A stretch of DNA of 64,000 nucleotides from an uncultured Bacteroidota bacterium (GCA_963846585.1 CAWJWO010000002.1:263592-327591); one strand, 5' to 3'; numbered from the stretch's first letter, positions 1,821 to 49,416 are shown. Made by a program: numbers and translations. Notes: generated by a model not told the origin, from the sequence alone.

Positions 1821-1951
1821 GTGATTAAGTGATTAAGTGATTAAGTGAAATAAATTTTATAAAAATGAACATATAAACGCATAAACATATAAACCTTATA
1901 AACTTTATAAACCTTATAAACCTCATAAACTCATTTTCAAATTTTCAAATT
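1821..1951. repeat. Intergenic tandem-repeat mosaic: (GTGATTAA)n + (YATAAAC-type 9-mers)n + (ATTTTCA)n
   Basis: 1821-1848 gtgattaa x3.5. 1871-1932 atataaacgcataaacatataaaccttataaactttataaaccttataaacctcataaactc. 1933-1951 attttcaaattttcaaatt. Confidence 0.9.
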
Positions 1952-2996
1952 ATTTTCCAGCTAAAATTTCCGTTACCCCCATTGTAGTACCTATCCATGC
2001 ATTACCTTGTTTATCGCATACAATAGCGTTAACAGTTGTCCCTATAAGTCCATTATCTATAGTATAGGTTGTCCATTGCGCGCCATTAAATTTAGTTACA
2101 CCTCCACCGGTTCCAAACCATGTATTTCCCTTTAAATCGAAGGCAATAGACGTTACCCAAATTGTCCCAAGGCCGTTAATGTTTGCATAGTTTTCCCAAT
2201 GATTGTTTTTAGTATATTCCGACACACCCCCATCCGTTCCAATCCATTTATTTCCCTGGGCATCTATTTCAATACAACTTACTCCGTTATTGACTAAACT
2301 GTCATTTGTTGTGTAAAATTTTTGTATTGTATCTGTTTTATTTTGATACACAGCAACAGCAACCCCATAAATGGTACCAAACCATTTATTACCCTCGGCA
2401 TCTATAGATATGCCATAAGAACGTAAAGTATCTGGTTTTACAACAGTATCAATGAAGTTTGTCCATTGAGTACCATCAAATTTTGAAATTCCAAAATTTG
2501 TTGCTACCCACTTAACTCCTGCATTATCTATTGCAATTGAATAAATACTTAAAGTATCCACTCTGGGATAAGGAATTTTTATAATAGTATCTTTCCCATT
2601 AATGGTATCTGTATTGCTATGAATTTCATGCAAAGTATCCAGAGGAAAGGTCGTTGACCACGATCCATTAAATTCTGTTAATCCGCGTGTAGTGCCAAAC
2701 CATAAATTTCCATTCGGATCAATGGCAATAGTGTGAACAATATTATTAAATAAACCATTTTGAGTATTAGTTTTATTATAAGTTGTCCAGTGAGTGCCAT
2801 CAAATTCAGTTACACCATAATTAGTCCCAAACCATATATTATTGTTTCCGTCAATTGCAATTGCATTAATATAATTTCCAGCCAATCCGCTGGCCGTAGT
2901 ATATGAAGGCCATGCTGAAGTTTTGGTTTTACTGCAGGAAATGCCTATTAATAAAGCTAATCCTGACAAAATAAATTTTAAAACCGTTTTCACCAT
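1950..2996 (-). CDS. Standalone Reg_prop repeat lipoprotein (paralog)
   Basis: 348-aa ORF with lipoprotein signal (LLIGISCSK). Blades WFGTNYGVTEFDG, WFGTTRGLTEFNG, WVATNFGISKFDG, WFGTIYGV, WIGTDGGVSEY, WFGTGGGVTKFNG, WIGTTMGVTEI. Confidence 0.8.
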   Translation of the reverse strand: MVKTVLKFILSGLALLIGISCSKTKTSAWPSYTTASGLAGNYINAIAIDGNNNIWFGTNYGVTEFDGTHWTTYNKTNTQNGLFNNIVHTIAIDPNGNLWFGTTRGLTEFNGSWSTTFPLDTLHEIHSNTDTINGKDTIIKIPYPRVDTLSIYSIAIDNAGVKWVATNFGISKFDGTQWTNFIDTVVKPDTLRSYGISIDAEGNKWFGTIYGVAVAVYQNKTDTIQKFYTTNDSLVNNGVSCIEIDAQGNKWIGTDGGVSEYTKNNHWENYANINGLGTIWVTSIAFDLKGNTWFGTGGGVTKFNGAQWTTYTIDNGLIGTTVNAIVCDKQGNAWIGTTMGVTEILAGK

Positions 2997-3087
2997 AATC
3001 TATATCTGTAACAAAAGTAGTTAAATTTTATAACTCAATGTATTTCCATTTATTGTACAATAAATAAAATGAATATAATGTTTGGAA

Positions 3088-6275: not shown

Positions 6276-6276
6276 G

Positions 6277-10839: not shown

Positions 10840-11721
10840 TCAATATTGTAAAATATAATAAGCGAATGCTTGAAGTTCTATTCCATAAATTCCTGCAATA
10901 TTTCCATCATTAGTCCAGTATTGCCAACCTTTATCTGCCATATGTGCTATATACCAAATATGAAAATTAGGGGTATTAGCAAATGCCATTTGTAATTGAC
11001 AGGTAGGCGCACTATGGTTCTGTGTACCAACAAATTGACTCCATCCATTACTGAAACCATTTGGATTATTATAATACCAGGTCCAATTTGGATTATAATT
11101 TTGATCACATCTCGCATAAATTGAATAAGAAATTGGATATGAAAGTATATTGCTATTTACCCAAAAACCTTCTAATCTTAAACCATCTCCAGTTGTTCCA
11201 ACATATGAAAAATCATTACTAGAGCCCAAAGAAGACGGGTTAATCTCTTCGTTACCGTTTCCTGAACCTCTAAAGGTAGGATAACCAGAACCAACATAAC
11301 CATGTGCTTCAACCCATGCTAGTCCAAAAACTCCACTTACATTCCAAAATGACGCCTTTGTCGTTAAAGGTAATTGCGGTACTGTATCCTTTGATGAAGA
11401 TATTTTTGAAGAATCTATAGGTATGTTTTTAAAAGGACTTATAATAGGTTCTTTCTTGCCCAATGATTTTAAAAACCCTGTGGTAGTATCGTATTGTGCA
11501 ATTACCTGAGCAGCATCAGATGTCCTTCCGTTTTTTAAAAGATTTGCATGAATTGCAAGAATAAGACTAGGATCAAGATATTGGAAAACTCGACCACTAT
11601 CATTTTTTAGAGCAAAAGTGCTGGATTGTATTGATGAATTTGTTTCGGATTTTTTGCAACTTTGCAATCCCAAAAACGTTATAAAAATAACGGCAATAGT
11701 ATAAAAAATTATTTTCTTAAT
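10840..11721 (-). CDS. Putative lipoprotein with ChW-like (hydrophobic-W) repeats; start codon unresolved
   Basis: The track ORF is 10840-11673 (TTG start). The frame stays open upstream to the TAA at 11737-11739 and encodes a perfect lipoprotein signal KKIKKIIFYTIAVIFITFLGLQSC, with no ATG/GTG/TTG. The end at 11721 assumes an ATT start. The C-terminal half shows ChW-like repeats (YIAHMADKGWQYWTNDGNIAGIYGIELQAF; VGTTGDGLRLEGFWV). Confidence 0.5.
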   Translation of the reverse strand: MKKIIFYTIAVIFITFLGLQSCKKSETNSSIQSSTFALKNDSGRVFQYLDPSLILAIHANLLKNGRTSDAAQVIAQYDTTTGFLKSLGKKEPIISPFKNIPIDSSKISSSKDTVPQLPLTTKASFWNVSGVFGLAWVEAHGYVGSGYPTFRGSGNGNEEINPSSLGSSNDFSYVGTTGDGLRLEGFWVNSNILSYPISYSIYARCDQNYNPNWTWYYNNPNGFSNGWSQFVGTQNHSAPTCQLQMAFANTPNFHIWYIAHMADKGWQYWTNDGNIAGIYGIELQAFAYYILQY

Positions 11722-11757
11722 TTTTTTAAATTTAGGTTAATTGTTACAATTTAATTA

Positions 11758-11799
11758 ATGAGATATAGTTTACTGTTGTTGTTTCCACGCCTGGTCTAA
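11758..11799 (+). other. Candidate 13-codon Leu-rich leader ORF ending in the terminator loop
   Basis: ATG AGA TAT AGT TTA CTG TTG TTG TTT CCA CGC CTG GTC TAA translates to MRYSLLLLFPRLV*. The four consecutive Leu codons sit just before the terminator stem, and the stop codon (11797-11799) lies in its loop. Confidence 0.25.
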
Positions 11800-11814
11800 A
11801 CAGGCGTGGTTTTT
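11785..11814 (+). terminator. Orphan plus-strand intrinsic terminator in the 714-bp divergent spacer upstream of the liu block
   Basis: ccacgcctg-gtctaaa-caggcgtgg followed by ttttt: a 9-bp GC-rich stem, 7-nt loop and T5. No annotated plus-strand gene lies upstream. Confidence 0.6.
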
Positions 11815-12146
11815 CATTTTTGGACAGCAGATGAAACTAACTACTGGTTGTTTTAATTACCTAGTAATTGAACAACAATTTAATTTCTTGATCTGTTAAT
11901 TCAAAATTAATTCATTATATTACGTTTTAATAATTTTATAATCTGCTAATTTGGCCTTTCCCAGAATTTGTTATAGTAAATAATTACTCAAAAACTAATA
12001 TGCTATATAAAATATTGAAATATAATGGTCTATTGACAAGAATTACTGTTAACTTTCTCTATCTTGCAATAGACAAATTTTGAATTAAAATTAAATACTA
12101 TTTCTTTGAATTCCAAGAAAAAATAATTAAATTAACGTTAATAATA

Positions 12147-12156
12147 CCCCCCCCCC
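12147..12156. repeat. Homopolymeric C10 tract
   Basis: ataatacccccccccccttatt read directly: ten consecutive C in an otherwise extremely AT-rich spacer, about 230 nt upstream of the liu block. Confidence 0.9.
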
Positions 12157-12247
12157 TTATTATATATAATTGATTATATGTATATTATAAATATTAAGTA
12201 TGATAAATTGAATGATTATATATTAATATTAATTTTATATTAATAAC

Positions 12248-12318
12248 AAAACCTTATAAACCTTATAAACCTTTATTACTTAATCACCTAATCACTTTTT
12301 TTACTTACGACTTACGAC
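12248..12318. repeat. Intergenic tandem-repeat mosaic: (CCTTATAAA)n + (CTTAATCAC)n + (TTACGAC)2
   Basis: aaaccttataaaccttataaaccttta (12248-12274). acttaatcacctaatcact (12278-12296). ttacgacttacgac (12305-12318). Confidence 0.9.
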
Positions 12319-12342
12319 TTTTCAAAATGAACACAATAATAA

Positions 12343-12350
12343 TACATTTG
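12343..12350 (+). promoter_or_regulatory. Possible Bacteroidota -7 promoter box (TAnnTTTG)
   Basis: tacatttg matches TAnnTTTG, 38 nt upstream of the ATG at 12388. No clear -33 TTTG partner. Motif match only. Confidence 0.2.
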
Positions 12351-12387
12351 TTAAATACATATTACCAGATATTTAACAAAGTACTTA

Positions 12388-13995: not shown

Positions 13996-14341
13996 AAGGA
14001 AAGTAGGCAGAGAATGGAAGAAGGCAGAAGCAGTGGGACATGAAAAGACATGAAAAGACGTGAGACGTGAGACGTGAAAAGAAGACAGAAGGCAGAAGAC
14101 AGAAAAAAGATAAAAGATTTAAGGAAAAAGATTTGAGATTTTAGAATCTAGATTTTAGAATTGAGATTTATAAATATCAATCTGGTAAAATATATTAAAT
14201 CTTAAATCACCAATCGCAAATCTGGAATCTTAAATCAAAGAGTCTTGGCTCATGGTTCTTGGCTCTTGGCTCTGTTTTTACAACCAACAACTAAGCACTA
14301 AGCACTAAGCACTAAGCACTAAGCACTAAGCACTATATAAA
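13996..14341 (+). repeat. Composite mosaic repeat element, copy A (fills the MCCase-beta / hydratase spacer)
   Basis: Module order: purine-rich GGCAGAAG units, (GACGTGA)x3 at 14057-14077, GAAGACAGAAGGCAGAAGACAG, AGATTT/GAGATTT-rich core, agtcttggctcatggttcttggctcttggctctg at 14241-14274, caaccaacaa, then (CTAAGCA)x6 at 14291-14336, then ATG. Collinear with the reverse complement of 34108-34396. Confidence 0.85.
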
Positions 14342-17178: not shown

Positions 17179-17357
17179 GTGCTTAGTGCTTAGTGCAAAG
17201 TGCATAGTACAGCAATATGCCGGCATTAAAAGCCTTCAAAAAATAACGTGCTAAAATAGTGAATTTAATATTATAAAAACAAGTCACATAAGAAGATTAT
17301 ACAACATTACAACATTACAACATTACAACATTACAACATTTACAACTTTACAACATT
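17179..17357 (+). repeat. TAGTGCW array (17179-17210) and (ACAACATT)n array (17301-17357)
   Basis: gtgcttagtgcttagtgcaaagtgcatagtac starts 5 nt after the MCCase-alpha stop. acaacatt x5 followed by tacaactttacaacatt lies 43 nt upstream of the ACAD start. Confidence 0.9.
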
Positions 17358-17399
17358 AAAATTTTTATAATATAATATATATTAATACACCCCTTATAT

Positions 17400-18580: not shown

Positions 18581-18848
18581 GAGTAAGAGATTAGTATATT
18601 TATAAATTTTAAAACATTTTAATAGACTTGTAACTTGAAACCAGTAACTATTTACATACTACTTACTAATGCGAATTAAGAGTTAAAATATTTATACTTA
18701 TTATCTAATAATTAGCAGAATATCATTTACATTAGCCAACTTTAACCCCAACCCCTTAAAAAGCATAGCCGTCAGGTTATGTCTATATAGAGCAGAATGA
18801 TAGATATTTAGTGTAAATGTAATAAAATATTAGTGTAATTAAGAGCGT

Positions 18849-19337
18849 ATGTCAACGACTGGATTTGTATATATTATGACCAATAAGAACAAAACAACTT
18901 TATATATTGGGGTTACAAACAATTTATGCAGAAGAATACATGAGCATAAAAATCATTTGATAAATGACACTTTTACAGATAAGTACAATATTGAATACTG
19001 TATTTATTACGAAGAATTTCAATATTTTGATTTGGCAATACAAAGAGAAAAAGAATTAAAAAAGTGGAACCGTCAAAAGTTTATTTCGAGTGACGCGAGA
19101 AAACTCAAGATTAACAAAAAGAACCCCGAATGGAAAGTGCTGGTAACAGAGCGTGGCTTTGTTCGGAATAATAAATCATTTTCTCAACATGTTTCGGACA
19201 TAGTCAATGAATTACAACCAATTAAAGAGATTCCTCCCTGCGGTCGGAATGACGACCAGCAGAATTGTGGCGTTGCTGGAGGTGAAGAGAGTGCGGCAAA
19301 GCCGCACTCTCTTCACCTCCAGCTCTCTGACCAATAA
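18849..19337 (+). CDS. GIY-YIG nuclease family protein (COG2827-like) with atypical C-terminal extension
   Basis: N-terminal GFVYIMTNKNKTTLYIGVTNNLCRRIHEH...YYEEF...AIQREKELKKWNR is the GIY-YIG core. The last roughly 60 codons run through a GC-rich hairpin region and are probably not a native domain. A 9-codon in-frame insert (ISSDARKLK, about 19082-19108) overlaps a repeat-motif copy at 19080-19106. Confidence 0.75.
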   Translation: MSTTGFVYIMTNKNKTTLYIGVTNNLCRRIHEHKNHLINDTFTDKYNIEYCIYYEEFQYFDLAIQREKELKKWNRQKFISSDARKLKINKKNPEWKVLVTERGFVRNNKSFSQHVSDIVNELQPIKEIPPCGRNDDQQNCGVAGGEESAAKPHSLHLQLSDQ

Positions 19338-19369
19338 CGACAGTCATTTCGAGCGAAGCGAGAAATCTC
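19227..19369 (+). other. GC-rich compound stem-loop region at the 3-prime end of the GIY-YIG ORF
   Basis: The outer 27-nt arms 19227-19253 (gagattcctccctgcggtcggaatgac) and 19343-19369 (gtcatttcgagcgaagcgagaaatctc) are 22/27 complementary. They enclose a 6-bp hairpin (19256-19279) and a perfect 23-bp stem (19275-19323). Confidence 0.6.
19275..19323 (+). other. Perfect 23-bp inverted repeat with a 3-nt loop
   Basis: gctggaggtgaagagagtgcggc-aaa-gccgcactctcttcacctccagc read directly. GC-rich, inside an AT-rich locus. Confidence 0.9.
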
Positions 19370-19514
19370 AAATAAAGTATTATAATTGTATATAAGCATT
19401 TTACAAGCGTTAACCTGACGGCTATGCCTTTTTAAGGGGTTGGGGTTAAAAAATACTAAAATGAATAAATATTGTCTTGAATAATTATAACAATAATTAA
19501 ATCCTTAATTCGCA

Positions 19515-19535
19515 TTACGACTTACGACTTACGAC
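19515..19535 (+). repeat. (TTACGAC)x3 array
   Basis: ttacgacttacgacttacgac ends 7 nt before the fni ATG. The same unit occurs at 12305-12318 and 61692-61705. Confidence 0.9.
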
Positions 19536-19542
19536 TAAATTT

Positions 19543-21875: not shown

Positions 21876-22811
21876 GTGATAATTTCCGCCAAATCATATT
21901 ATTCCAATGGAAAACTCCTGTTAACCGGTGAATATCTTGTAATGTACGGCGCTAAAGCGTTGGCAATTCCTGTAAAATTTGGTCAATCAATTAGTATTAC
22001 TGAACATTCCGGAGATAATAAATTGGTTTGGGTAGCTAAAGAATATGGAAAAAATTGGTTTAAAGCAGTTTTTTCTTCCAAAACGCTTACTGTTGAAGAA
22101 TATTCAGATATACAAATTGTAAAACGTTTGCAGAAGATTATAAATGAGGCAAAATTATTAAACCAACAATTTATTAAAGAAGATTCCGGTTATTTGATTG
22201 AAACAAATTTAAACTTTAACAGATACTGGGGGTTGGGTACAAGTTCAACATTAATATCCAATATTGCCCTTTGGGCAAATATTGATCCATTTTGGCTTAA
22301 CCGGAAAGTTTCAAATGGATCAGGTTACGATATTGCCTGTGCTGAATCGGCATCATCAATTATTTATCAACTCAATAAACAAATTCCTGTCATTAAAAAT
22401 GTCTCTTTTAATCCAATATTCAGGGACAAAATATATTTTATATACCTTGAGAAAAAACAAGATTCCGCTGCCAGTATAGAAATCTTAAATCAAAAACAAT
22501 CATTATTTTTAAAAGAAATAAAACAAATATCTGACCTGACGGAAAAGTTTTTAAATGCCGGCTCAATTGAAGAAGTTATCCCTGTTATTAAGGCTCATGA
22601 AACAATCATCAGTTCACTATTAAATATCCCTGCTATTCAAAATACATTATTCCCGGATTTTACAGGTATAATAAAATCTCTTGGTGCCTGGGGCGGAGAT
22701 TTTATTATGGCAATTTCTTCAATGAATAAAAATTCGGTTGAACAATACTTCAGGGATAAGGGTTTCCCTGTAATAATACCTTTTGACGAAATGGTACTGA
22801 ATAGTGCTTAG
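21876..22811 (+). CDS. GYDIA-family GHMP kinase (putative phosphomevalonate kinase of the Bacteroidota MVA pathway)
   Basis: 311-aa ORF with GTG start. GKLLLTGEYLVMYGAKALAIPV, GHMP motif GLGTSSTLISN, and the signature GSGYDIACA. The last two codons and the stop lie inside the TAGTGC repeat array. Confidence 0.7.
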   Translation: MIISAKSYYSNGKLLLTGEYLVMYGAKALAIPVKFGQSISITEHSGDNKLVWVAKEYGKNWFKAVFSSKTLTVEEYSDIQIVKRLQKIINEAKLLNQQFIKEDSGYLIETNLNFNRYWGLGTSSTLISNIALWANIDPFWLNRKVSNGSGYDIACAESASSIIYQLNKQIPVIKNVSFNPIFRDKIYFIYLEKKQDSAASIEILNQKQSLFLKEIKQISDLTEKFLNAGSIEEVIPVIKAHETIISSLLNIPAIQNTLFPDFTGIIKSLGAWGGDFIMAISSMNKNSVEQYFRDKGFPVIIPFDEMVLNSA

Positions 22812-22867: not shown

Positions 22868-22901
22868 AACATATTATTTATATATATTAGTTAACAACAT
22901 T

Positions 22902-24940: not shown

Positions 24941-24952
24941 AGATTAATTTTA

Positions 24953-28877: not shown

Positions 28878-29028
28878 TTGTTGGTTGTTAGTTGTTAGTT
28901 GTTAGTTGTTGGTTGTTAGTTTTTAGTTGTTGGTTGTTAGTTGTTAGGAAATTATACAACCTTTACAACCTTTACAACCTTTACAACCAATTTCAATTTT
29001 ATAAACCTTATAAACCAATTTTCAAATT
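28855..29028 (+). repeat. Four-module mosaic: TAGTGCW, (TTAGTTG)~10, (TACAACCTT)x3.7, (TTATAAACC)x2
   Basis: 28855-28877 agtgcttagtgcatagtgcttag. 28874-28947 ttagttgttggttgttagttgttagttgttagttgttggttgttagtttttagttgttggttgttagttgttag. 28955-28988 tacaaccttx3+tacaacc. 28999-29016 ttataaaccttataaacc. 29017-29028 aattttcaaatt. Confidence 0.9.
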
Positions 29029-29135
29029 ATCTCAATGAAATATTATAAAAGTTTGATTTAACGAAACAATTGTCATAAACTTTTATATTTTTGAAACTTT
29101 GTTTGAAAATTAAGTATAAAAAATATAACTTAAGA

Positions 29136-30044
29136 ATGAAACCAACATTATTAATACTGGCCGCAGGAATGGGAAGCCGTTATGGCAGCCTGAAACAGGT
29201 AGATCCTGTTGGACCATCGGGTGAAACTATATTGGAATATTCAGTTTACGATGCTATAAGGGCAGGTTTTGGAAAAGTTGTTTTCGTTATCAGAAAGGAC
29301 CTGGAAAAAGATTTTAAAGAAATATTTATTCTAAAATTACAAAAACATATAGATGTTAGTTATGTGTTTCAGGAATTAGATATGGTCCCAAAAGGTATTC
29401 CGATCCCTGTTGATAGAGTAAAGCCTTGGGGCACAGGACATGCAGTATTAGTTGCATCTTCAAAAATAAAAGAACCATTTGCTGCTATAAATGCTGATGA
29501 TTATTATGGTGTTGATGCTTACAAAAAGATGTCTGTTTACCTGTCGGGACTTGGCAATTCAGAATCAACCTATGCAATGGCCGGTTTTGACCTCAACAAT
29601 ACGCTTTCTGAACATGGATTAGTGTCCCGTGGCATTTGTGAAATTGATAAAAACTCCTTTTTAAAAACTGTAGCAGAACGGTCAAAAATTGGCCGTGATA
29701 ATAATGGTGTAGGTTATCAGGATGAAAACGGAAAGTTTGTTTATGTTGATGAAAAATCAATAGTTTCAATGAATTATTGGGGATTTACACCTATGTTTTT
29801 TTCGCAGCTTGAAGAACAATTTCATTCTTTTATTTCAGCAAACTTTAGTAATCTTAAAGCGGAAATCTTTCTGCCAATGGTCATTGACGATCTTATAAAA
29901 TCTAAGATTGCAAAAGTTAAGGTATTACATAGTTCCGATCTTTGGTGTGGAGTAACCTATAAAGAAGACAAGCCTCTGGTAGTAACTAAAATTAAAGATT
30001 TGGTCAATGCAGGGGTCTATCCGAAGAATCTTTGGCTGGAATAG
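29136..30044 (+). CDS. Sugar-phosphate nucleotidyltransferase family protein (NTP_transferase fold)
   Basis: N-terminal LILAAGMGSRYGSLKQ glycine-rich NTP loop, then KPWGTGHAV and INADDYYG. The track ORF starts at 29091, but the ATG at 29136 gives the conserved N-terminus. Confidence 0.7.
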   Translation: MKPTLLILAAGMGSRYGSLKQVDPVGPSGETILEYSVYDAIRAGFGKVVFVIRKDLEKDFKEIFILKLQKHIDVSYVFQELDMVPKGIPIPVDRVKPWGTGHAVLVASSKIKEPFAAINADDYYGVDAYKKMSVYLSGLGNSESTYAMAGFDLNNTLSEHGLVSRGICEIDKNSFLKTVAERSKIGRDNNGVGYQDENGKFVYVDEKSIVSMNYWGFTPMFFSQLEEQFHSFISANFSNLKAEIFLPMVIDDLIKSKIAKVKVLHSSDLWCGVTYKEDKPLVVTKIKDLVNAGVYPKNLWLE

Positions 30045-30186
30045 TGATGAGGTGATTAAGTGATTAAGTGATTGAGTGATTGAGTAATTAATATTATAAT
30101 TAAAATAAACCTTATAAACCTTATAAACCTTATAAACCTCATAAACGAATAAACTAATATACCTTATCAATTTACAATTTACAATT
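30044..30186. repeat. Mosaic: (GTGATTRA)x6 + (CTTATAAAC)n + (CAATTTA)x2.7
   Basis: 30044-30091 gtgatgaggtgattaagtgattaagtgattgagtgattgagtaattaa. 30105-30154 ataaaccttataaaccttataaaccttataaacctcataaacgaataaac. 30168-30186 caatttacaatttacaatt. Confidence 0.9.
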
Positions 30187-30191: not shown

Positions 30192-31832
30192 ATGAGCAAT
30201 TTATCTTATTCAAACGGAATCAGTTCTATCCCTTTAAAGGGAGAAACAATTAGCGAATGTTTACGGAAGACAATTGAAAAATATGGTCATCGCGAAGGAT
30301 TAGTAGTCGTTTCACAGAATTACAGGGCAACCTACCTTGAGCTGTGGGAACAGATAGAGGAAGTTGCTAAAAGTTTATTAGCCTATGGCATTAAGAAGGG
30401 AGACAGGGTGGGGATATGGGCCCCAAACCGGTTTGAATGGGTATTGGTTCAATTTGCAACCGCTCGTATTGGAGCTATAATGGTTAACATTAATCCTGCC
30501 TATAAATCGTCGGATTTGAAATATGCCCTTGAACAAAGTAAAGTTAACCTTTTGATAACTGCACACTATTTCCGGAAAACCGATTATGTTGAAATATTAA
30601 ACCATATCAGGCCGGAATGCGAATATCCATATCGTACGATTATTCTTGAAAAAGATTGGGAAAAATTCATTCTGGCAGGTAAAAAAATATCTGAAATAGA
30701 GCTTTCAGAACGTGAAAATAATTTACAATTCGACGACCCTATTAACATTCAATATACTTCGGGAACAACAGGGTTCCCAAAAGGTGCAACCTTATCCCAT
30801 CATAACATTCTTAATAACGGGTTTTTTATAGGTGAACGAATGTTATTCAGCGAAAATGACAGGGTTTGTATTCCGGTGCCTTTTTATCATTGCTTTGGTA
30901 TGGTGTTGGGAAACATGGCATGTATAACACATGGTTCATGTATGGTAATTCCAGGTGAGTTTTTCGAACCTGAATCAGTGTTAAAAACTGTTGAAGATGA
31001 GAAATGTACGGCATTATACGGTGTCCCTACAATGTTTATTGCCGAACTTGAGAATCCCAATTTCAATAAATATATTTATTCCACACTCCGGACAGGTATT
31101 ATGGCAGGTTCCCCCTGTCCTATTGAAACAATGAAACAGGTAGTCAGCAAAATGCATATAAGCCAGGTAACAGTGTGTTATGGTATGACAGAAACTTCAC
31201 CCGTATCTACACAAAGTTTTGCCGATGATATTATTGATAAAAGAGTATCTACAGTTGGGAAAGTCCATCCCCATCTTGAAATAAAAATTATTGATCCTGA
31301 ATCAGGATATATAGTCCCGGTCGGACAGAGGGGTGAAATATGCACCCGCGGCTATTCAGTTATGATAGGTTATTGGGATATGCCTGAAGAAACTGCTAAT
31401 GTAATTGATCGGAACCGGTGGATGCATACCGGTGATTTAGGCGTTATGGACGAAGAAGGATATGTTAAAATTGTAGGACGTGCAAAGGATATCATTATTC
31501 GTGGCGGGGAAAATATTGCTCCCCGGGAAATTGAGGAATTTTTGATGACACATCAGGCCATATCCGATGTTCAGGTAATTGGTGTCCCTGACGCTAAATA
31601 CGGTGAGGAAGTAATGGCCTGGGTTCAACTGCGTTCAGGTTTTGAAGTTACATTTGAAGAACTTCACGAATATTGCAAAGGACAAATTGCCACCTATAAA
31701 ATACCAAAATACTGGAAGTATACTGATCAATTTCCAATGACCATAAGTGGCAAAGTAAGAAAAATAGAAATGCGTGAAATATCAATTAAAGAATTAGGGC
31801 TGCAGGATGCAGCAGATATCTTAACAGCTTGA
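30192..31832 (+). CDS. AMP-binding acyl-CoA synthetase (medium/long-chain fatty-acid--CoA ligase-like)
   Basis: 546-aa ORF: AMP motif [57 protein letters not shown]. Confidence 0.85.
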
Positions 31833-31877
31833 TTTTTACTGATACTAACTAATTCCAGTTCTGATAAATTTAACCTT

Positions 31878-33590
31878 ATGAACAACAAGAATTGGAAAAT
31901 AAAATCTCCGGGCAGTATATCATCATTAGAACATTTAATAAATGTTTTAGGGGTTGACAGAACTATTGCAAATCTTCTTGTTAAAAGAGAAATTACTTCA
32001 TTTGAAGAAGCTAAAGCCTTTTTCAGGCCAGATTTATCGCTGTTACATGACCCGTTTTTAATGAAAGACATGGATACTGCGGTTAACCGGATTAGCCTGG
32101 CAATTGAAAATAATAGAAAAATACTTATTTACGGGGATTATGATGTCGATGGCACTACTTCAGTAGCAATGGTTTATTCATTCTTTAAAAAATTAACAAG
32201 GGAAATACTTTATTATATTCCAAACCGTAATTCGGAAGGTTATGGAATATCTTTTAAAGGAATCGAATATGCTGTTGAAAATAATGTAGACCTGATTATA
32301 TCTCTGGATTGTGGCATTAAAGCAATTGAAAAAGTAAGTTACGCGAAAAAAAACAATATAGACTTTATAATCTGCGATCATCACTATCCTGGCGACATCC
32401 TGCCTGATGCAATGGCTGTGCTTGATCCTAAACGCACTGACTGTTTATATCCCTACAAGGAGCTATCCGGTTGCGGAGTAGGATATAAATTATTACAGGC
32501 TTATTGTATAAGCAAACAAATATCTCTGGATGTACTGGAAAATTTTCTTGATTTGGTTGCTGTCAGTATCGCCTCTGATATAGTGCCCATAACCGGTGAA
32601 AACAGGATTTTAGCTTATTTCGGATTAATTCAGCTTACCAAATCCCCTTGTCCCGGATTAAAATCAATTATAAAAATTTCCGGTCTTGAAAGCAAAGAAA
32701 TTACCATTGATGATATTGTATACAAAATAGGGCCCAGGATCAATGCTGCAGGAAGAATTGAAAATGGCATAAAGGCAGTGGAATTATTGGTTTCAGATGA
32801 CGAAGAACACGCTTTTTCATTGGTTGGCAAAATCGATAATTATAATAATACACGAAAAAACATTGACAGTAATATTACCGCGGAAGCACTGAAAATAATA
32901 GTTAATGATCCAAATTTAAAGGAAAACAATTCCATTGTATTGTTCAACCCAAACTGGCACAAAGGTGTTATTGGTATTGTAGCATCGCGGTTAATTGAAT
33001 ATTATTACAGGCCTACAATTATACTTACTGAATCAAACGGCTTGGCGTCAGGTTCGGCACGTTCGGTGGAAGGTTTTGATCTTTACAGGGCTATTTCCGC
33101 GTGCAGTGACTTATTGGAAAATTTTGGCGGACACATGTTTGCAGCCGGGTTAACACTTAAGGTTGAAAATGTGCCTGCCTTTAAGGAAAGGTTTGAGAAA
33201 GTAGTGTCCTCCACAATTAAATGGGATCAGTTGGCTCCAACAATCGAAATTGATGATGAAATTGAATTAAAGGATATTACTTTAAAATTCTACCGTATTT
33301 TAAAACAATTCCAACCTTTTGGGCCGGGTAATTTGTCGCCGGTATTTCTTACAAAAAACGTATCAGATAATGGAAGTGCCAGGATTGTCGGAAATAATTC
33401 CGACCACCTGAAACTTGAACTTATACAGGAATCTGACCCTTTTCATAAATACCCGGCAATTGCATTTCAAATGTCAGAACATTTTAGCTATATCAAAAAC
33501 GGGAATCCTTTTGATATTTGCTATTCAATTGAAGAAAATGCATACAGGGGAAAAACCACACTTCAATTGCGGTTAAAAGACATAAAATAA
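31878..33590 (+). CDS. recJ: Single-stranded-DNA-specific exonuclease RecJ
   Basis: 570-aa ORF with DHH-family motifs: IYGDYDVDGTTS, SLDCGI, ICDHHYP, GGHMFAAG. Confidence 0.9.
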   Translation: MNNKNWKIKSPGSISSLEHLINVLGVDRTIANLLVKREITSFEEAKAFFRPDLSLLHDPFLMKDMDTAVNRISLAIENNRKILIYGDYDVDGTTSVAMVYSFFKKLTREILYYIPNRNSEGYGISFKGIEYAVENNVDLIISLDCGIKAIEKVSYAKKNNIDFIICDHHYPGDILPDAMAVLDPKRTDCLYPYKELSGCGVGYKLLQAYCISKQISLDVLENFLDLVAVSIASDIVPITGENRILAYFGLIQLTKSPCPGLKSIIKISGLESKEITIDDIVYKIGPRINAAGRIENGIKAVELLVSDDEEHAFSLVGKIDNYNNTRKNIDSNITAEALKIIVNDPNLKENNSIVLFNPNWHKGVIGIVASRLIEYYYRPTIILTESNGLASGSARSVEGFDLYRAISACSDLLENFGGHMFAAGLTLKVENVPAFKERFEKVVSSTIKWDQLAPTIEIDDEIELKDITLKFYRILKQFQPFGPGNLSPVFLTKNVSDNGSARIVGNNSDHLKLELIQESDPFHKYPAIAFQMSEHFSYIKNGNPFDICYSIEENAYRGKTTLQLRLKDIK

Positions 33591-33612
33591 TAATGTCTTC
33601 TTTTCTAATAAC

Positions 33613-34107
33613 TTAAGACATTTTCAGGTAAGTAATAAAGGAATATGGATACATATGCCTTTCATCCATAGGATGCTCCTCTGATTCTATAATTTTCCAA
33701 TTTTCAGGATCAATTTCAGGGAAAAAAGTATCTGCTTTAAAGGTCGAATGTACTTTAGTAATATATAGCTTCTGTGCAAGGGGGTAAAATTGTTTATATA
33801 CCGATGCTCCGCCACAAATAAAGTTTTCCTTCTGATCATCACATTTTAACATAACATCCTCGATAGAATAAGCCATTAAACAATTATCGATCTGTTCTCC
33901 GGGCCGGTCACTGATTACTATATTGACCCTTCCAGGCAGAGGCCGGAATGGCAATGAATAATATGTATTTTTACCCATAATAATAGTATGTCCGCCTGTA
34001 ATTCTTTTAAATCGTTTTAAGTCTTCCGGCAGATGCCAAAGTAGTTTGTTGTCCTTTCCTATTGCATTGTTTTCATCAATAGCTGCTATTATGGATATCC
34101 TTTTCAT
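33613..34107 (-). CDS. folA: Dihydrofolate reductase
   Basis: 164-aa ORF: ISIIAAIDENNAIGKDNKLLWHLPEDLKRFKRIT, GHTIIMGKNTY, GRVNIVIS, GGASVY. Confidence 0.9.
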   Translation of the reverse strand: MKRISIIAAIDENNAIGKDNKLLWHLPEDLKRFKRITGGHTIIMGKNTYYSLPFRPLPGRVNIVISDRPGEQIDNCLMAYSIEDVMLKCDDQKENFICGGASVYKQFYPLAQKLYITKVHSTFKADTFFPEIDPENWKIIESEEHPMDERHMYPYSFITYLKMS

Positions 34108-34396
34108 TATAAAATAGTGATTAGTGCTTAGTTGTTAGTTGCAAAAACAGAGCCAGGAGCCAAGAACCAGGAGCCAAGACTTTATGATGATTCTAGATTT
34201 AATATTTTAATAGTCTTTCTAAATTGTAAATCTTAAATCTCAAATCTGGAATCTCAAATCTTTTATCTTTTTTCTGTCTTCTGCCTTCTGTTTTCTGATT
34301 GCTGTCTTCTTTTCACGTCTCACGTCCCACGTCTCACGTCCCATATCTTGGTCTTGGTTCCTGGCTCTTGGCTCTTGGTTCCAACCTGAAATTACA
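34108..34396 (-). repeat. Composite mosaic repeat element, copy B (fills the thyA / folA spacer)
   Basis: The reverse complement reads ggaaccaagagccaagagccagg..., (GACGTGR)x4, gaaaagaagacag...cagaaggcagaagacagaaaaaagataaaagatttgagatt..., aagtcttggctcctggttcttggctcctggctctgtttttgcaactaacaactaagcactaatcacta, then the ATG of folA. This is collinear with copy A. Confidence 0.85.
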
Positions 34397-35191
34397 TTAA
34401 ATCGAAATCTCTCCTTTTATATGCGGATGCGGACTATAATTTTCAAGTATAAAATCATCGAATTTGAAATCAAAAATAGATTTTACTTCGGGATTCAGCT
34501 TAAGTTTTGGCAATGGCCTTGGATCCCTTGTTAACTGAAGGATAACCTGCTCAACATGATTAAGGTAAATATGAGCATCGCCTAAAGAGATAATAAGTTC
34601 CCCAGGCTGAAGATCTGTTACCCTTGCAACCATATGCAAAAGAAATGCATATGAAGCAATATTAAATGGTACCCCCAAAAACACATCAGCACTTCGTTGA
34701 TACATCTGACAAGATAATTTTCCGTCACCAACATAAAACTGGAACAGAATATGACAGGGTGGCAGTGCCATATTATCAAGTTCGCCGACATTCCATGCAC
34801 TTACAATATGCCTTCTCGAATCAGGATCTTTTTTAATTGATTCAATAACTTTCGAAATCTGGTCAATATGCTGTCCGTTAGCAGTTGGCCATGATCTCCA
34901 TTGGTGGCCATAGATTGGGCCAAGATTGCCGAGATCATCTGCCCATTCATCCCAAATTGTTATGCCATTTTCATTAAGATATCGGGTATTTGTAGATCCT
35001 TGCATAAACCATATCAATTCGTGTAAAATCGATTTTATATGCAACTTCTTAGTAGTAAGCAATGGGAAACCTTTGGATAAATCGAATCGCATCTGGTACC
35101 CAAAAATGCTGATAGTGCCTGTACCGGTCCTATCAGTCTTTTTTATCCCTCTGGCAAGTACATGGTCAAGTAAATCAAGGTATTGCTTCAT
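34397..35191 (-). CDS. thyA: Thymidylate synthase
   Basis: 264-aa ORF: [54 protein letters not shown]. Confidence 0.95.
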
Positions 35192-35246
35192 GTAGTAAAT
35201 TAGTTATTATTGTTCACTAAAATGTAAAATAAATAAAATTTTACGA

Positions 35247-35771
35247 CTAATTAAAGTGGTTATCTATTCTGATTACTCTAAGTACATTATTCCGAAAAAT
35301 AAAATACATCGAATTAATTGCCTTCCCTGAGGTTAAACGAATTGTATCCTCATTGCCAACAGGCAAATCCAAAAAACATTTTTGAAAATCCCTGCGGCAG
35401 ATACCAACTTTTATCCCATTACGCAATACTATCCTGGAATCATATATATTTCCGGCAATAAATAGCTCTCTTTCATAAGCTTTATATACAAATAATTCCG
35501 ATCTTTTTTTATAAAACCTGAAAATTGAATCTGTTTGAGTAGGGATAAGCCTGTTTTTAATTGTATAAACCTTCATTTTATAACACGGCCTTAAATAAAT
35601 ATTAAAATTTTTAACTGTTGGATCGTAATTAAAAGGGGAAAGTACGAGTTGAGCCATTTTGATGGGAAAATTGTCCGAAACAGGAACCATTTTCATATGG
35701 CAAGTCAGGCACCCAGGATATAAAAAACCGGATAAACATGCAATAAACAGTATTTTAAAGAATTTTATCAT
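35247..35771 (-). CDS. Hypothetical secreted protein
   Basis: 174-aa ORF with an N-terminal hydrophobic signal (ILFIACLSGFLYPGC). No family recognised. Confidence 0.45.
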   Translation of the reverse strand: MIKFFKILFIACLSGFLYPGCLTCHMKMVPVSDNFPIKMAQLVLSPFNYDPTVKNFNIYLRPCYKMKVYTIKNRLIPTQTDSIFRFYKKRSELFVYKAYERELFIAGNIYDSRIVLRNGIKVGICRRDFQKCFLDLPVGNEDTIRLTSGKAINSMYFIFRNNVLRVIRIDNHFN

Positions 35772-35934
35772 GCGAATATTTTTATTTATATTAACCAGGT
35801 TTTAAATTATTATTTTTATTCAATAAGGAACAAATATCATATATTACAATGAAAAAAATCAGGATGTTGCTAAATAAATATTAAAATGTTAAAAAAATAT
35901 CTGTAAAAAATTAATCTTTAACCTTTCAAAGTTT

Positions 35935-37301: not shown

Positions 37302-37373
37302 ATTGATTATTGAATATTGAATATTGAATATTGAAATATTTAGTCTTGGTTCCTGGCTCTTGGCTCTTGGTTC
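37302..37373 (+). repeat. (ATTGAAT)x5 array and CTTGGYTC module
   Basis: 37302-37337 attgattattgaatattgaatattgaatattgaaat. 37342-37373 agtcttggttcctggctcttggctcttggttc, the same module as 14241-14274 and 34347-34382. Confidence 0.9.
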
Positions 37374-37881: not shown

Positions 37882-37882
37882 T

Positions 37883-37985
37883 TATAAGAGGTTTATAAGG
37901 TTTATAAGGTTTATATTAATTATAATATTTTTCACTTAATCACTTAATCACCTCATAACTTAATCATTTAATCACCTAATCACTC
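37883..37985. repeat. Mosaic: (GGTTTATAA)x3 + (CACTTAAT)~6
   Basis: 37883-37915 tataagaggtttataaggtttataaggtttata. 37933-37985 cacttaatcacttaatcacctcataacttaatcatttaatcacctaatcactc. This is the reverse-complement arrangement of the blocks at 1821-1932 and 30044-30154. Confidence 0.9.
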
Positions 37986-43401: not shown

Positions 43402-43512
43402 TAGTGCTTGGTTCATAGTGCTTAGTGCATAGAAGTTGTAAAGGTTGTAGGGGTTATAGAGGTTGAAGAGGATGTAAAAATACAACTTTACAACTTTTAC
43501 AACCTTTACAAC
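43402..43512. repeat. TAGTGCW array (43402-43432) and inverted TACAACCTT arrays (43435-43512)
   Basis: tagtgcttggttcatagtgcttagtgcatag. Then gttgtaaaggttgta (43435-43449) is perfectly complementary to tacaacctttacaac (43498-43512), with degenerate units between them. Confidence 0.9.
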
Positions 43513-43537
43513 TATATAACCATAATACTTTTCAAAT

Positions 43538-45040: not shown

Positions 45041-45044
45041 AATA

Positions 45045-47452: not shown

Positions 47453-47530
47453 TTCCCGCGATCAGAATTTTGTGCGAATTTAGGCTATTTTAATATATAA
47501 TTCAACATATATTATACAAATAAGTTCGAT

Positions 47531-47555
47531 AAAAAAAGGCCTGCCCAGGCAAGCC
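47531..47555 (-). terminator. Intrinsic terminator between htrA and rpoD
   Basis: Minus-sense ggcttgcc-tg-ggcaggcc followed by ttttttt (plus strand aaaaaaaggcctgcccaggcaagcc). GC-rich stem plus U7. Confidence 0.65.
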
Positions 47556-47558
47556 CTA

Positions 47559-47700: not shown

Positions 47701-47701
47701 A

Positions 47702-49183
47702 TTACACTCCAAATGCATAATATGCAAGTACCCCATTCGGATATACACCTTCAATTAATACACCACCTTTAAATCCGGATAATTCATTTTTTACATCTTC
47801 TGTAGAATAAACAGGGTGATTATTTATTTTAGTGATAATAAAACCTTTTTGAACACCTTCATCCTTTAATTTGCCCTGAGCAAGGTTTAGCACTTTAACC
47901 CCTGACTTAATTCCCAGTTTATGTTTTTCAGCGGAGGACACTTCACCCAATTGAGCTCCTAAAAGGGATAATTCTTCATCATTTGATGTAATAATTTTGG
48001 TATTTCCTTCCATATTACGTAAGATAACTGATATTTGTTTCCTTTTATTATCCTGCATTATTACTAAATCGACTTTATCCTTTGGACGAAAACGGCTTAT
48101 CTGTTCCTGTAATTCAGAAGTGCTGTTTACATTTACATTATTAACTGATAAAATAATATCCCCCTCTTTTATCCCTGCGGCTTCGGCAGCTCCATCCTTA
48201 GCAATTCCGGCAACATAAACTCCCTCAATCTTATCAAGTTTTTTATCGCGCAGCAAATCTTCATCAATATCTTTTATTGAAACTCCCAACAATGCTCTTT
48301 GAACTTTTCCATATTCAATTATATCGGAAGCAACTTTTTTTACAATAGATACAGGTATAGCGAAGGAATTACCAATATAACTACCTGTTGGAGAAGCTAT
48401 AGCTGTATTAATTCCGATAAGTTCCCCTTTAGTGTTTACCAAAGCCCCGCCACTATTGCCAGGGTTAACAGCAGCATCTGTCTGGATAAACGATTCAATT
48501 GCATAATTTCCCCTTTTATCATTTCTATCACTAAGAATATTAAGATTCCTGGCCTTAGCACTTACAATCCCTGCAGTTACCGTTGAAGTAAGATTATATG
48601 GATTACCAACTGCAAGTACCCATTCACCAACTTTAATATCATCTGAATTTCCATAAGTTATATATTGAAGATTGGATTCATCAATTTTTAAAACTGCAAT
48701 ATCGCTATCCGGATCCCTGCCAATGACTTTGGCCGTATAAGTGTGTTTATTATTAAGAGTAACTTCAACCTTATCAGCTTCATCAATAACATGATTGTTT
48801 GTTATAATATATCCATCAGCCGAGATAATAACTCCTGATCCAAAACCAGATACCGGTTGTGGTTTTTCCTGAAAATTCCTTTCGCCAAAGAAAAAATCGT
48901 AAAAAGTACCGCCTGATGTAACATTTTGAACTGAAGTTGTCTTTACATGAACCACTGCATGGACAGTTTTATCTGCAGCATATGTAAAGTCAAGGCAATT
49001 GCCATTAGTACCTGTTGACAGCTGTGTCAAATGAGGGTATTGGGGTTGTTCTGCAGAAATAATAACAGGCTTACGAACAAATTTTGAATAAATAAATACT
49101 GTGATAAGGCATGTAGCCAATATCATCAAAAATAATCCTCCCGGATTCTGGATTTTCCTATTGATAAATAATGAAGTTTTCAT
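47702..49183 (-). CDS. htrA: HtrA/DegP/DegQ-family periplasmic serine protease with two PDZ domains
   Basis: Catalytic triad context TNNHVI, DIAVLKI, GNSGGALVN, followed by two PDZ-like segments. Confidence 0.9.
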   Translation of the reverse strand: MKTSLFINRKIQNPGGLFLMILATCLITVFIYSKFVRKPVIISAEQPQYPHLTQLSTGTNGNCLDFTYAADKTVHAVVHVKTTSVQNVTSGGTFYDFFFGERNFQEKPQPVSGFGSGVIISADGYIITNNHVIDEADKVEVTLNNKHTYTAKVIGRDPDSDIAVLKIDESNLQYITYGNSDDIKVGEWVLAVGNPYNLTSTVTAGIVSAKARNLNILSDRNDKRGNYAIESFIQTDAAVNPGNSGGALVNTKGELIGINTAIASPTGSYIGNSFAIPVSIVKKVASDIIEYGKVQRALLGVSIKDIDEDLLRDKKLDKIEGVYVAGIAKDGAAEAAGIKEGDIILSVNNVNVNSTSELQEQISRFRPKDKVDLVIMQDNKRKQISVILRNMEGNTKIITSNDEELSLLGAQLGEVSSAEKHKLGIKSGVKVLNLAQGKLKDEGVQKGFIITKINNHPVYSTEDVKNELSGFKGGVLIEGVYPNGVLAYYAFGV

Positions 49184-49308
49184 TTTTTCTGATTTAATTA
49201 CAAAATATTACAGGTAAACTACAAAATAACTGCCATATTTTTGTATTTAATGATTAATTAACAATATTTAACAGGGAGATACTATTATGAAGCTTTAGAT
49301 TGATATAC

Positions 49309-49416
49309 GTTTATAAGATTTATAAGGTTTATAAGGTTTATAAATTTATGTGTTTATTTGTTTAGTGTTTATATTAAATTCCATAAACTTTATAAACTCT
49401 ATAAACTTCATAAACC
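49309..49416. repeat. Inverted GTTTATAAG / ATAAACT arrays (gyrB-htrA spacer)
   Basis: 49309-49373 gtttataagatttataaggtttataaggtttataaatttatgtgtttatttgtttagtgtttata. 49381-49416 ccataaactttataaactctataaacttcataaacc. Confidence 0.85.

Follow-up and report, generated by a model that had tools for sequence, protein, structure and literature searches.

The spacers between the genes of a 64,000-nt stretch of DNA from an uncultured Bacteroidota bacterium (CAWJWO010000002.1:263592-327591 of assembly GCA_963846585.1; this whole stretch is called the window below) are crowded with head-to-tail arrays of short units, 7-9 nt long, that recur from spacer to spacer. The window has a GC content of 34% and carries tightly packed housekeeping genes, among them gyrB, parAB, thyA-folA, recJ, a row of mevalonate-pathway genes and genes of leucine catabolism, and it also encodes a TonB-dependent receptor with a CarboxypepD_reg domain and a protein with a CHU_C type IX secretion domain. 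A Shine-Dalgarno-like motif is found in 4.5% of the window genes (5.5% in shuffled sequence) and a TAnnTTTG promoter box in 18%, while the closest GyrB matches are uncultured Bacteroidales and Bacteroidota metagenome-assembled genomes (MAGs). The two domains, the lack of Shine-Dalgarno sites and the GyrB matches together identify the host as a member of the Bacteroidota, and by its sequence it appears to belong to a Bacteroidales-like lineage of the Bacteroidia with no cultured close relative. A tRNA/tmRNA scan of the window found no gene, and a search of it against Rfam at gathering thresholds found no family.

The comparisons below cover these 64 kb of host genome, 22 kb around gyrB from a 148-kb contig of one array-poor relative (L203) and 4 kb of the closest relative (L208), together with metagenome loci that were chosen by the presence of one unit, the TTATAAACC nonamer, and in which gene borders come from a simple open reading frame (ORF) caller.

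Density of the Arrays and Chance Expectation

Arrays with a period of 6-12 nt cover 1777 of the 7083 intergenic bases in the window (25.1%) vs 0.28% of the coding bases. Shuffling the spacers 100 times with dinucleotides preserved gave arrays over a mean of 11 bases (0.16%) and a maximum of 77. A preliminary description of the window had reported at least seven families of short units, shuffled like modules through the spacers and occupying much of the non-coding DNA. The share is indeed large, about 20 times the ~1% of spacer DNA found in arrays at 80 other Bacteroidota gyrB loci (1.4 Mb), and the seven flagged families alone account for 832 nt, or 12% of the intergenic DNA. The reported unit was present at every coordinate given for it, and Tandem Repeats Finder (TRF) returned the same arrays, but the sites differ in strength. 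Those at 1816-1848, 1888-1930, 17300-17358, 28955-28988, 30105-30146, 19515-19536 and 37302-37340 are strong arrays, while 61661-61679 (~1.5 imperfect AACCTGT units), 29017-29028 (~1.5 units) and 26862-26877 (2 units) are weak. The arrays of the window, with the evidence for each in brackets, are as follows.

1816-1848, plus strand: (GTGATTAA)4.1, G-rich and C-free, left module of composite copy 1 (TRF; alignment with other copies)
1868-1932, plus strand: array with an ATAAAC core, ATAAACNN followed by about five TTATAAACC units, C-rich with a single G (in ATAAACGC) (TRF; alignment)
1888-1930, plus strand: (TATAAACCT)4.8, a strong array within 1868-1932 (TRF)
1933-1951, plus strand: (ATTTTCAA)2.4, short, after the TTATAAACC module (TRF)
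12249-12273, plus strand: (TTATAAACC)2.8, at the start-codon end of a divergent 714-nt spacer (TRF)
12278-12296, minus strand: about 2.3 units of GTGATTAA, reading TTAATCAC, C-rich on the plus strand
12303-12320, plus strand: (TTACGAC)2.6 (TRF)
14037-14335, no single strand: ordered heptamer run of AGACGTG, AGAAGAC and AGATTTW, then AAATCTN, TCTTGGC and ACTAAGC (TRF; inverted pair I2)
17300-17358, plus strand: (TACAACAT)7.2, an 8-nt relative of TACAACCTT, 5' of an acyl-CoA dehydrogenase gene (TRF)
19515-19536, plus strand: (TTACGAC)3.1, ending 6 nt before the ATG at 19543 (TRF)
24946-24981, minus strand: (AATTTGAAAATG/AATTTGAA), reverse complement of the ATTTTCAA family, directly after the stop at 24940 (TRF)
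24983-25020, plus strand: (AACCTGT)5.4, imperfect, 77% matches (TRF)
26862-26877, plus strand: TACAACTTT TACAACC, two units only, beside a degenerate ATAAACC-like stretch
28955-28988, plus strand: (TACAACCTT)3.8, perfect (TRF)
28999-29028, plus strand: (TTATAAACC)2, then AATTTTCAAATT (TRF)
30043-30091, plus strand: (GTGATTAA)6.1, beginning at the stop TAG of the upstream gene, left module of composite copy 2 (TRF; alignment)
30092-30104, plus strand: linker TATTATAATTAAA, of which TATTATAATTAA is common to the inverted copy at 37916-37931 (alignment)
30105-30159, plus strand: (TTATAAACC)4.7, also read as (ATAAACCTT)4.7 at 30105-30146, plus degenerate ATAAACNN units (TRF; alignment)
30168-30186, plus strand: (CAATTTA)2.7, ending 5 nt before the ATG at 30192 (TRF)
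34108-34396, no single strand: thyA-folA spacer of 289 nt, largely arrays, with TAGTGCT, TTAGTTG, GAGCCAG ... AAATCTN, TTCTGTC, TCACGTC, TCTTGGC (TRF; identical in a second assembly)
37302-37340, plus strand: (ATTGAAT)5.4, the sole ATTGAAT array of the window (TRF)
37882-37915, minus strand: (TTATAAACC)3, reading GGTTTATAA, the G-rich first part of composite copy 3, inverted (TRF; alignment)
37932-37985, minus strand: (GTGATTAA)6.6, reading TTAATCAC, the C-rich second part of composite copy 3 (TRF; alignment)
43430-43513, no single strand: inverted pair (AAGGTTGTA)5.2 ... (TACAACYTT)3.8, arms 28 nt and 82% complementary (TRF; absent from the orthologous 23-nt L203 spacer)
49273-49473, no single strand: insertion of ~200 nt straight after the gyrB stop (long hairpin, z = -3.7; absent from L203 and L209, present in L208 with other copy numbers)
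49309-49349 and 49383-49416: inverted pair inside the gyrB insertion, (GTTTATAAG)4.6 and (ATAAACTYT)3.7
61661-61679, plus strand: AAACTGAAACCTGTAAATT, a weak AACCTGT-like site of ~1.5 units
61690-61713, plus strand: (TTACGAC)3.4, adjoining the stop of the minus-strand gene 61712-63385, so that G-rich GTCGTAA lies on the sense strand of the gene (TRF)

The preliminary description had itself named the finding that would overturn it, that the units are simply the commonest k-mers of a strongly biased genome. This reading, together with that of misassembly, can draw on ATTGAAT, AACCTGT and ATTTTCAA, which are ordinary k-mers with 47, 16 and 22 copies in genes and form arrays at one or two places only, so that for these three weak families it is partly borne out. 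For the clearly non-random families (TTATAAACC, GTGATTAA, TACAACCTT/TACAACAT and TTACGAC) it is refuted. TTATAAACC, GTGATTAA and TACAACCTT have 0, 1 and 0 copies in 57 kb of coding DNA vs 14, 9 and 5 in 6.9 kb of spacers, the spacer counts being 15-60 times those expected from composition and the copies lying largely in tandem (13/14, 7/9 and 3/5), while TTACGAC has 2 coding and 8 spacer copies. The arrays also occur in independent metagenomes, and independent short-read contigs agree with the window where they overlap it, three of them (L081, L082, L215) at 100% and the fourth (L214) at 99.93%, with one mismatch and one gap, which shows that the arrays are real rather than assembly artefacts. 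As a general account of the arrays, an origin in common k-mers or misassembly is therefore practically negligible. Three of the four contigs (L081, L082, L214) terminate within arrays, which indicates that arrays break short-read assemblies.

Clustering, a check that the preliminary description had called for on the whole genome, was applied to the 57 arrays of the window and gave families of 11, 7, 7, 5, 3, 3 and 3 members, after a 12-member single-linkage cluster had been divided by eye into seven TTAGTTG arrays and five others. Among 57 random composition-matched arrays, the largest family with identical units had a mean of 1.5 members and never more than 4, compared with 7 for TTATAAACC and 11 for TAGTGCW in the window. 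The recurrence of the same units across many spacers is thus far above chance.

Arrays also overlap gene ends (28855-28877, 22802-22867, 30042). The last codons and stop of ORFs 28068-28877, 21876-22811 and 29091-30044 fall within the first repeat units, and ORF 22860-23990 as listed begins within an array, making mechanical ORF calls unreliable at such borders. In practical terms, arrays of this kind split short-read assemblies, can inflate ORF calls at gene ends and would serve as sensitive strain markers.

Module Order and a Dispersed Composite Block

The flagged families occupy the same spacers as arrays of TAGTGCW and TTAGTTG and the heptamers TCTTGGC, AGACGTG, AGAAGAC and AGATTTW. They lie directly beside the TAGTGCW and TTAGTTG arrays and in consistent orders, which makes this one system; the seven families are part of a single array population. 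The view that units combine as modules was borne out by orders that recur between spacers. The order at 28855-29028 is TAGTGCW, TTAGTTG, TACAACCTT, TTATAAACC, ATTTTCAA; at 1816-1951 and 30043-30186 it is GTGATTAA, TTATAAACC and then ATTTTCAA or CAATTTA; and AGACGTG, AGAAGAC and AGATTTW at 14056-14169 recur reverse-complemented at 34227-34340. Inverted pairs of one family are present in five window spacers (I1, I2, I3, I5, I11).

The GTGATTAA/TTATAAACC pair, described earlier as one block, does recur as such and in both orientations. Six copies align (three in the window, two in contig L115, one in L133), a blastn search with the block gave two matches in L115, and the window copies at 30036 and 37998 (minus strand) have in common the non-repeat linker TATTATAATTAA. 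Wherever the pair is adjacent in metagenome contigs (L108, L115, L133), GTGATTAA lies 5' of TTATAAACC on the same strand; the GC content of these contigs (33-37%) and their TAGTGCT, TTAGTTG and CATTTTCA arrays indicate that they come from relatives. These alignments show (GTGATTAA)n-(TTATAAACC)n to be a dispersed composite with a conserved linker, with three copies in the window and ~55% mean column identity with the metagenome copies. No full-length element family was found, and only this two-module block recurs. At 12248-12296 the two modules stand, as had been reported, in a different relative orientation.

The mosaic had also been called BIME-like (bacterial interspersed mosaic element). 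Repetitive extragenic palindromic (REP) sequences of enterobacteria and pseudomonads are imperfect palindromes of 20-40 nt in alternating orientation, situated mainly at the 3' ends of genes and linked to REP-associated tyrosine transposases (RAYTs). The window arrays resemble them in forming an extragenic mosaic of recurring short modules, somewhat rarer in divergent spacers (13% coverage vs 24-26% of convergent and co-directional spacers), and separate GC-rich hairpin doublets stand beside ORF 53051-53512. The units themselves, however, are 7-9 nt long, mostly without G or without C, non-palindromic and head-to-tail, where REPs would be stem-loops in alternating orientation; the composite block folds no better than its shuffles (z = -1.6); and no Y1_Tnp (RAYT) or other transposase domain was found in the 38 window ORFs scanned. 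The comparison with BIMEs had to be dropped, and that the arrays are palindromic units spread by a RAYT is very improbable.

A Strand-Polarity Rule

The units come close to a three-letter alphabet: on the G-rich strand only 4-8% of letters are C, and 47-67% of units contain G but no C. Where neighbouring arrays differ in the sign of their G-C skew, the G-rich one precedes the C-rich one at all 13 junctions in the window and at 41 of 42 junctions in the metagenome loci, so that the reverse junction occurs once in 55. On the plus strand, G-rich and C-rich arrays stand at 80:10 in the left halves of spacers and at 19:98 in the right halves (p = 2.5e-27), and spacers with arrays of a single skew sign obey the same polarity (36:6 vs 7:50, p = 1e-13). 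The polarity is seen whatever the arrangement of the flanking genes (co-directional, divergent or convergent), and it persists when TTATAAACC-like units are removed, which leaves about 100 distinct units; among 29 unique inverted pairs from some 20 unit families, the G-rich arm is the 5' one in 28.

Read 5' to 3', the G-rich strand points away from the nearest gene. With respect to the sense strand of a gene, arrays that follow the stop are G-rich and C-poor and those that precede the start are C-rich and G-poor, as are 68 of the 72 lying no more than 50 nt from a start codon. Compliance near stops is 96% at 0-15 nt (78:3) and 88% at 15-50 nt, near starts 92% and 97% over the same distances, and beyond 100 nt it falls to ~50-65%. 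The earlier statement that the composite block is independent of gene direction is correct for the sequence of the block but misses this rule: GTGATTAA is rich in G and lacks C, TTATAAACC is rich in C and lacks G, so the block reads G-rich then C-rich whichever way it is turned and satisfies the rule. The rearranged copy at 12248-12320 is C-rich throughout and occupies the end of a divergent spacer next to the start codon, and thus also obeys.

Several explanations of the polarity were considered. Amplification of background skew was rejected, since spacers with arrays masked are only weakly skewed, reaching ~0.15 at most both at the 80 loci and in the window, which are the larger samples. Fold-back duplication, in which priming by G/T-rich nascent strands would yield inverted pairs of the order G-rich then C-rich, does not suffice alone, since solitary arrays obey the rule and compliance varies with gene distance. 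On the start side, the sense strand is free of ATG, GTG and TTG in 63 of 80 start-proximal arrays, and in 39 of the 80 it contains no G at all. In Bacteroidetes, translation initiation proceeds without Shine-Dalgarno pairing, leaders are unstructured and AUG is under-represented near starts (PMC6847099), and the start-side polarity fits an avoidance of start codons in Bacteroidota that lack Shine-Dalgarno sites. On the stop side, where the polarity is equally strong, back-up stop codons were rejected as the cause (stop density 9.6 sense vs 7.6 antisense per 100 nt). One could speculate that promoter boxes that require G, or Rho loading sites, are avoided on the strand reading into the neighbouring gene.

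Though this is less likely than not, the polarity may be, rather than a by-product, a general and so far undescribed principle in Bacteroidota without Shine-Dalgarno sites, by which three-letter arrays are tolerated only if the strand reading into a gene is G-free and they form signal-free buffers at both gene ends, or alternatively it may be the sign of a polar genesis of the repeats. The latter would proceed through synthesis directed from the ends at gene borders, or through G/T-rich nascent strands that fold back and act as primers, with the widespread TTATAAACC/palindrome elements as seeds. Buffers, if that reading is true, would amount to start-codon-free, weakly structured DNA at gene ends. 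A polarity spanning more than 100 unit types in any case offers options that can be tested, namely start hygiene, avoidance of G-containing signals, Rho loading and polar mutation.

The Nonamer Family in Metagenomes

A scan of JGI metagenome contigs for exact TTATAAACC arrays (2.5 exact units) found at least 120 stretches in many samples, with the variants TTACAAACC, TCATAAACC and TTATCAACC and the 8-nt ATAAACNN; a logo of the nonamer is uninformative since the loci were chosen by the exact unit. Genes on these contigs have a Shine-Dalgarno motif in 9% of cases (shuffled 5.5%) and are enriched in TAnnTTTG, which marks most array contigs as Bacteroidota-like. Neither blastn nor tblastn found regions orthologous to the window among the metagenome matches, and a literature search for the exact repeat strings found no paper. 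The array occurs in only 2 of 2.9 million viral contigs, so that phages are no obvious vector. One putative viral contig, L212 (IMG/VR UViG_3300044843_000577), carries (TATAAGGTT)10 and an extreme wealth of arrays with periods of 8-36 nt over 11 kb.

In five contigs (L086, L096, L111, L140, L200), related GC-rich palindromes (TTGATATT..GCTCG / CGAGC..AATATCAA; consensus TTGATATT[CT][AG]NCNGCTCG ... CGAGC..AATATCAA) form a core between inverted arms of TTATAAACC-type units, the nonamer arrays facing outward, and the units beside the core resemble the outer stem. Across the metagenome contigs, inverted TTATAAACC-type arms have the same polarity at 62:1 (counted as raw pair combinations). One copy of the palindrome requires G-U pairs on one strand, a hint of structure at the RNA level. 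A search of the window for the core with 3 mismatches gave noise only, with no core present. Rfam searched by E-value with seven metagenome loci gave sub-threshold plant and animal miRNA hairpin models and no bacterial family, the miRNA matches being due to the long perfect hairpins.

Gain and Turnover Among Relatives

A GyrB protein search found relatives at 95%, 95%, 93% and 89% identity. One of the two at 95%, L203, is syntenic with the window over 39.6-61.6 kb at 71-83% nucleotide identity, and its 22 kb contain no 6-12 nt array with at least 3 copies and a score of at least 40, where the window counterpart has about 15. Most L203 spacers are much shorter (L203 vs window, 104/290, 23/138, 49/200, 84/265 and 24/118 nt). 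Promoter-proximal sequence and an intrinsic terminator are kept, which means that the arrays are additions; their absence from L203 shows that they are dispensable for the flanking housekeeping genes. The terminator (GGGCTTGCCTGGGCAGGCC followed by a T run; 47530-47556, minus strand), which lies upstream of the sigma-70 gene, is kept in L203 and L209, and in the window TTAGTTG-type arrays are gathered only on its upstream side. At the parB stop L203 has TTAGTGATTAGTA vs about five TAGTGCW units in the window, and elsewhere a single GTAGTTGAAAAG vs (GTTGTAAAG)n. These two proto-unit sites suggest that arrays may grow in place from seeds.

The comparison of sister spacers that the preliminary description had proposed, carried out for the gyrB region, found one insert present or absent as a whole. 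L208 is closer to the window, with a gyrB nucleotide identity of 88% vs ~82% for L203 and L209, and it alone has in common with the window the ~200-nt insert after gyrB, which both L203 and L209 lack. Copy numbers within the insert differ: the window has about 4-5 units per arm, while of the two arms in L208 one has just one copy that can be recognised and the other only degenerate copies, with ATTTTCAA-type units reiterated and TTATAAACC-type units single or degenerate. In other Bacteroidota, arrays of quite different units stand straight after the gyrB stop (L035:3185-3887; L025:11978-12186), including GC-rich ones in a Lentimicrobiaceae MAG of 48% GC, with an inverted partner 550 nt off. 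This suggests that the post-gyrB position recurs while the units turn over.

Foldback elements and miniature inverted-repeat transposable elements (MITEs) have inverted arms of short tandem sub-repeats around a central loop, and leave filled and empty sites. The arrays could accordingly be arms or debris of foldback, non-autonomous MITE-like elements moved by an enzyme encoded elsewhere, with solitary arrays and blocks as partial or decayed elements. This would account for the one-family inverted pairs in five window spacers, for the gyrB insert, which is one long hairpin including its non-array ends (z = -3.7) and is present or absent as a whole among relatives, for the arms of nearly uniform polarity around related cores in metagenome contigs and for the dispersal of a composite block with its linker. 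It is difficult to reconcile with the fact that most arrays are solitary, without defined termini or near-identical full-length copies, and with the lack of a recognisable target-site duplication at the single filled/empty site (the gyrB spacer). No array-linked transposase was found in the window or among 130 ORFs flanking metagenome arrays, where an all-against-all comparison for an array-linked gene gave only duplicates of the same loci. Descent from one element also leaves unexplained why more than 100 unrelated units have the same polarity, why this varies with distance to the nearest gene and why C-rich-then-G-rich junctions, expected of independent tandem insertions, are as rare as 1/55; nor does it predict proto-units at the same sites in L203. 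We consider it unlikely.

A function in cis, in mRNA or DNA, much like one proposed for TAACTGA repeats, either as reiterated sites for an RNA- or DNA-binding protein or as unstructured A/C-rich translational enhancers before starts that are paired with G/U-rich elements after stops, would agree with the strict orientation to start and stop codons, strongest within 50 nt, with arrays that often end 5-7 nt before a start (19536/19543, 30186/30192, 14335/14342) and with a nonamer kept across many metagenomes. TAACTGA arrays likewise stand forward before starts and reversed after stops (PMC4679880; also L100 and L144). A role of this kind is nevertheless quite unlikely, a shade more so than descent from foldback elements: the L203 orthologues of gyrB, parAB, the sigma-70 gene and others do without these arrays, more than 100 different units under one rule imply that recognition is not sequence-specific, no pattern linking arrays to gene function was seen in the window, the arrays at 12248-12320 lie upstream of a TAnnTTTG box and so probably outside the 5' untranslated region, and no Rfam family matches.

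Relation to Known Repeats

Short tandemly repeated repetitive (STRR) sequences of cyanobacteria consist of head-to-tail units of 7-9 nt, with several families per genome, nearly all intergenic, sporadic in distribution and of unknown function. Phase-variation repeats have units of 1-8 nt at single loci, in surface or restriction genes, and in CRISPR arrays repeats of 25-50 nt alternate with unique spacers of about the same length. The window arrays resemble phase-variation repeats as slippage-prone tandem repeats near start codons, but they affect nearly every housekeeping-operon spacer and lie outside ORFs; unlike CRISPR repeats, their units are 7-9 nt long and directly adjacent. To our knowledge, STRRs and long simple sequence repeats have not been reported to follow a rule of strand polarity or to keep a recurring order of modules. 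The latter are repeats of 5-11 nt (Mrazek et al., 2007, as summarised in PMC4679880).

The arrays are intergenic short tandem repeats of the STRR/long simple sequence repeat class. They repeat a unit of 5-11 nt head-to-tail beyond chance (TRF and exact-period scans), have a strong preference for non-coding DNA (25.1% vs 0.28%) and include several unit families spread across many loci within a genome, and like the members of that class they are sporadic among lineages. Strict STRRs they are not, since the host belongs to the Bacteroidota rather than to the heterocystous cyanobacteria and the units differ from STRR1-3. Further differences are the low-GC (34%) Bacteroidales-like host, the quarter of spacer DNA taken up and the prominence of octamers and nonamers alongside heptamers. 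The nearest parallel in Bacteroidetes is the TAACTGA heptamer, found in intergenic repeats of Beggiatoaceae, cyanobacteria and five Bacteroidetes (MacGregor, 2015, PMC4679880), in the "forward" sense just upstream of starts, with a reverse set just after a stop codon in Flexibacter litoralis; arrays of other heptamers adjoin it in Gramella and Aequorivita, and close relatives lack arrays at the same loci (PMC4679880). Fixed orientation to start codons, neighbouring arrays of other heptamers and array-free close relatives are common to both systems. TAACTGA arrays themselves number 0 in the window and 4 in two metagenome loci, and in contrast to the TAACTGA case many families coexist here and the rule is compositional (G-rich vs C-rich) rather than tied to one sequence. 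The mosaic had been thought unusual for bacteria; given the heptamer-type intergenic arrays described in cyanobacteria, Beggiatoaceae and a few Bacteroidetes (PMC4679880), that holds for its density rather than for its kind. New here are how densely the arrays are packed, the grammar of their modules, an undescribed nonamer family that is widespread and linked to a palindromic core, fast turnover from one close relative to the next and a general strand-polarity rule.

Origin and Persistence of the Arrays

We think it probable that the arrays are non-essential satellite DNA, driven by slippage, spread as blocks and filtered by orientation, which has recently proliferated, with units of 7-9 nt, in spacers throughout the genome of a low-GC Bacteroidales-like lineage. 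Some arrays would start from short seeds already at the same position in array-poor relatives. Array anatomy (perfect head-to-tail copies, with variant units grouped together) and the sister comparison suggest that whole units are then gained and lost through replication slippage or unequal exchange. Composite blocks, copies of which retain their linkers, and foldback inserts with inverted arms would be copied between spacers, also in related genomes, which may produce the look of shuffled modules. Of the arrays so formed, only those whose G-rich strand runs away from the nearest gene would persist; near starts, a G-free sense strand would mean no ATG, GTG or TTG and no internal G-C pairs, as would suit unstructured, AUG-depleted leaders. 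Slippage, block copying and selection are each inferred from sequence comparison.

Several observations weigh against this account. At 34108-34396 the arrays are identical in three assemblies of one population, so that no polymorphism in unit number was seen at the shortest timescale. Exact TTATAAACC arrays in at least 120 stretches from many samples are hard to square with neutral, fast drift, and their spread points to a sequence-specific constraint, an active spreading agent, or both. The stop-side polarity (78:3 within 15 nt) is not due to back-up stops, and the fading of the rule with distance argues for selection related to function over pure "junk". The comparison with relatives, moreover, rests on 64 kb of genome and 22 kb of one array-poor relative.

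Short intergenic repeats have been known in bacteria for decades without explanation. An array-rich lineage set beside a syntenic, array-free relative gives a locus-by-locus view of their gain, growth and cost.

Other Features of the Window

ORF 18849-19337 (in the region 18740-19450), which interrupts a row of metabolic genes, lies between inverted copies of ~40 nt, one at about 18740-18790 and the other at about 19400-19450, and has a perfect 23-nt palindrome at its end (19275-19323). Its position between inverted repeats made it a RAYT candidate, which was rejected, as it encodes a GIY-YIG nuclease domain; the ORF with its flanks looks like a small mobile cassette. ORF 53051-53512 lies between inverted blocks of ~50 nt (52995-53045 and 53555-53605) that are absent from the orthologous L203 spacers. 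Each block consists of two GC-rich hairpins (GCCCTGAAAGGGC, CACAGGGCAACGCCCTGTG) and is more REP/BIME-like than the tandem arrays are.

The long divergent spacer 11674-12387 has a run of ten C at 12143-12152 and, near 11785-11815, a hairpin resembling a terminator (CCACGCCTG..CAGGCGTGG, then a T run) that is not preceded by any annotated gene. Another assembly (ENA contig_21778, 422,931 bp; L213) matches the window at 100% identity over 31397-35817. At window position ~35814-35817 that contig has a 1.67-kb insertion carrying a DDE_Tnp_1 transposase gene (L213:705-2374), which the window lacks, with a 4-nt overlap that suggests a target duplication.

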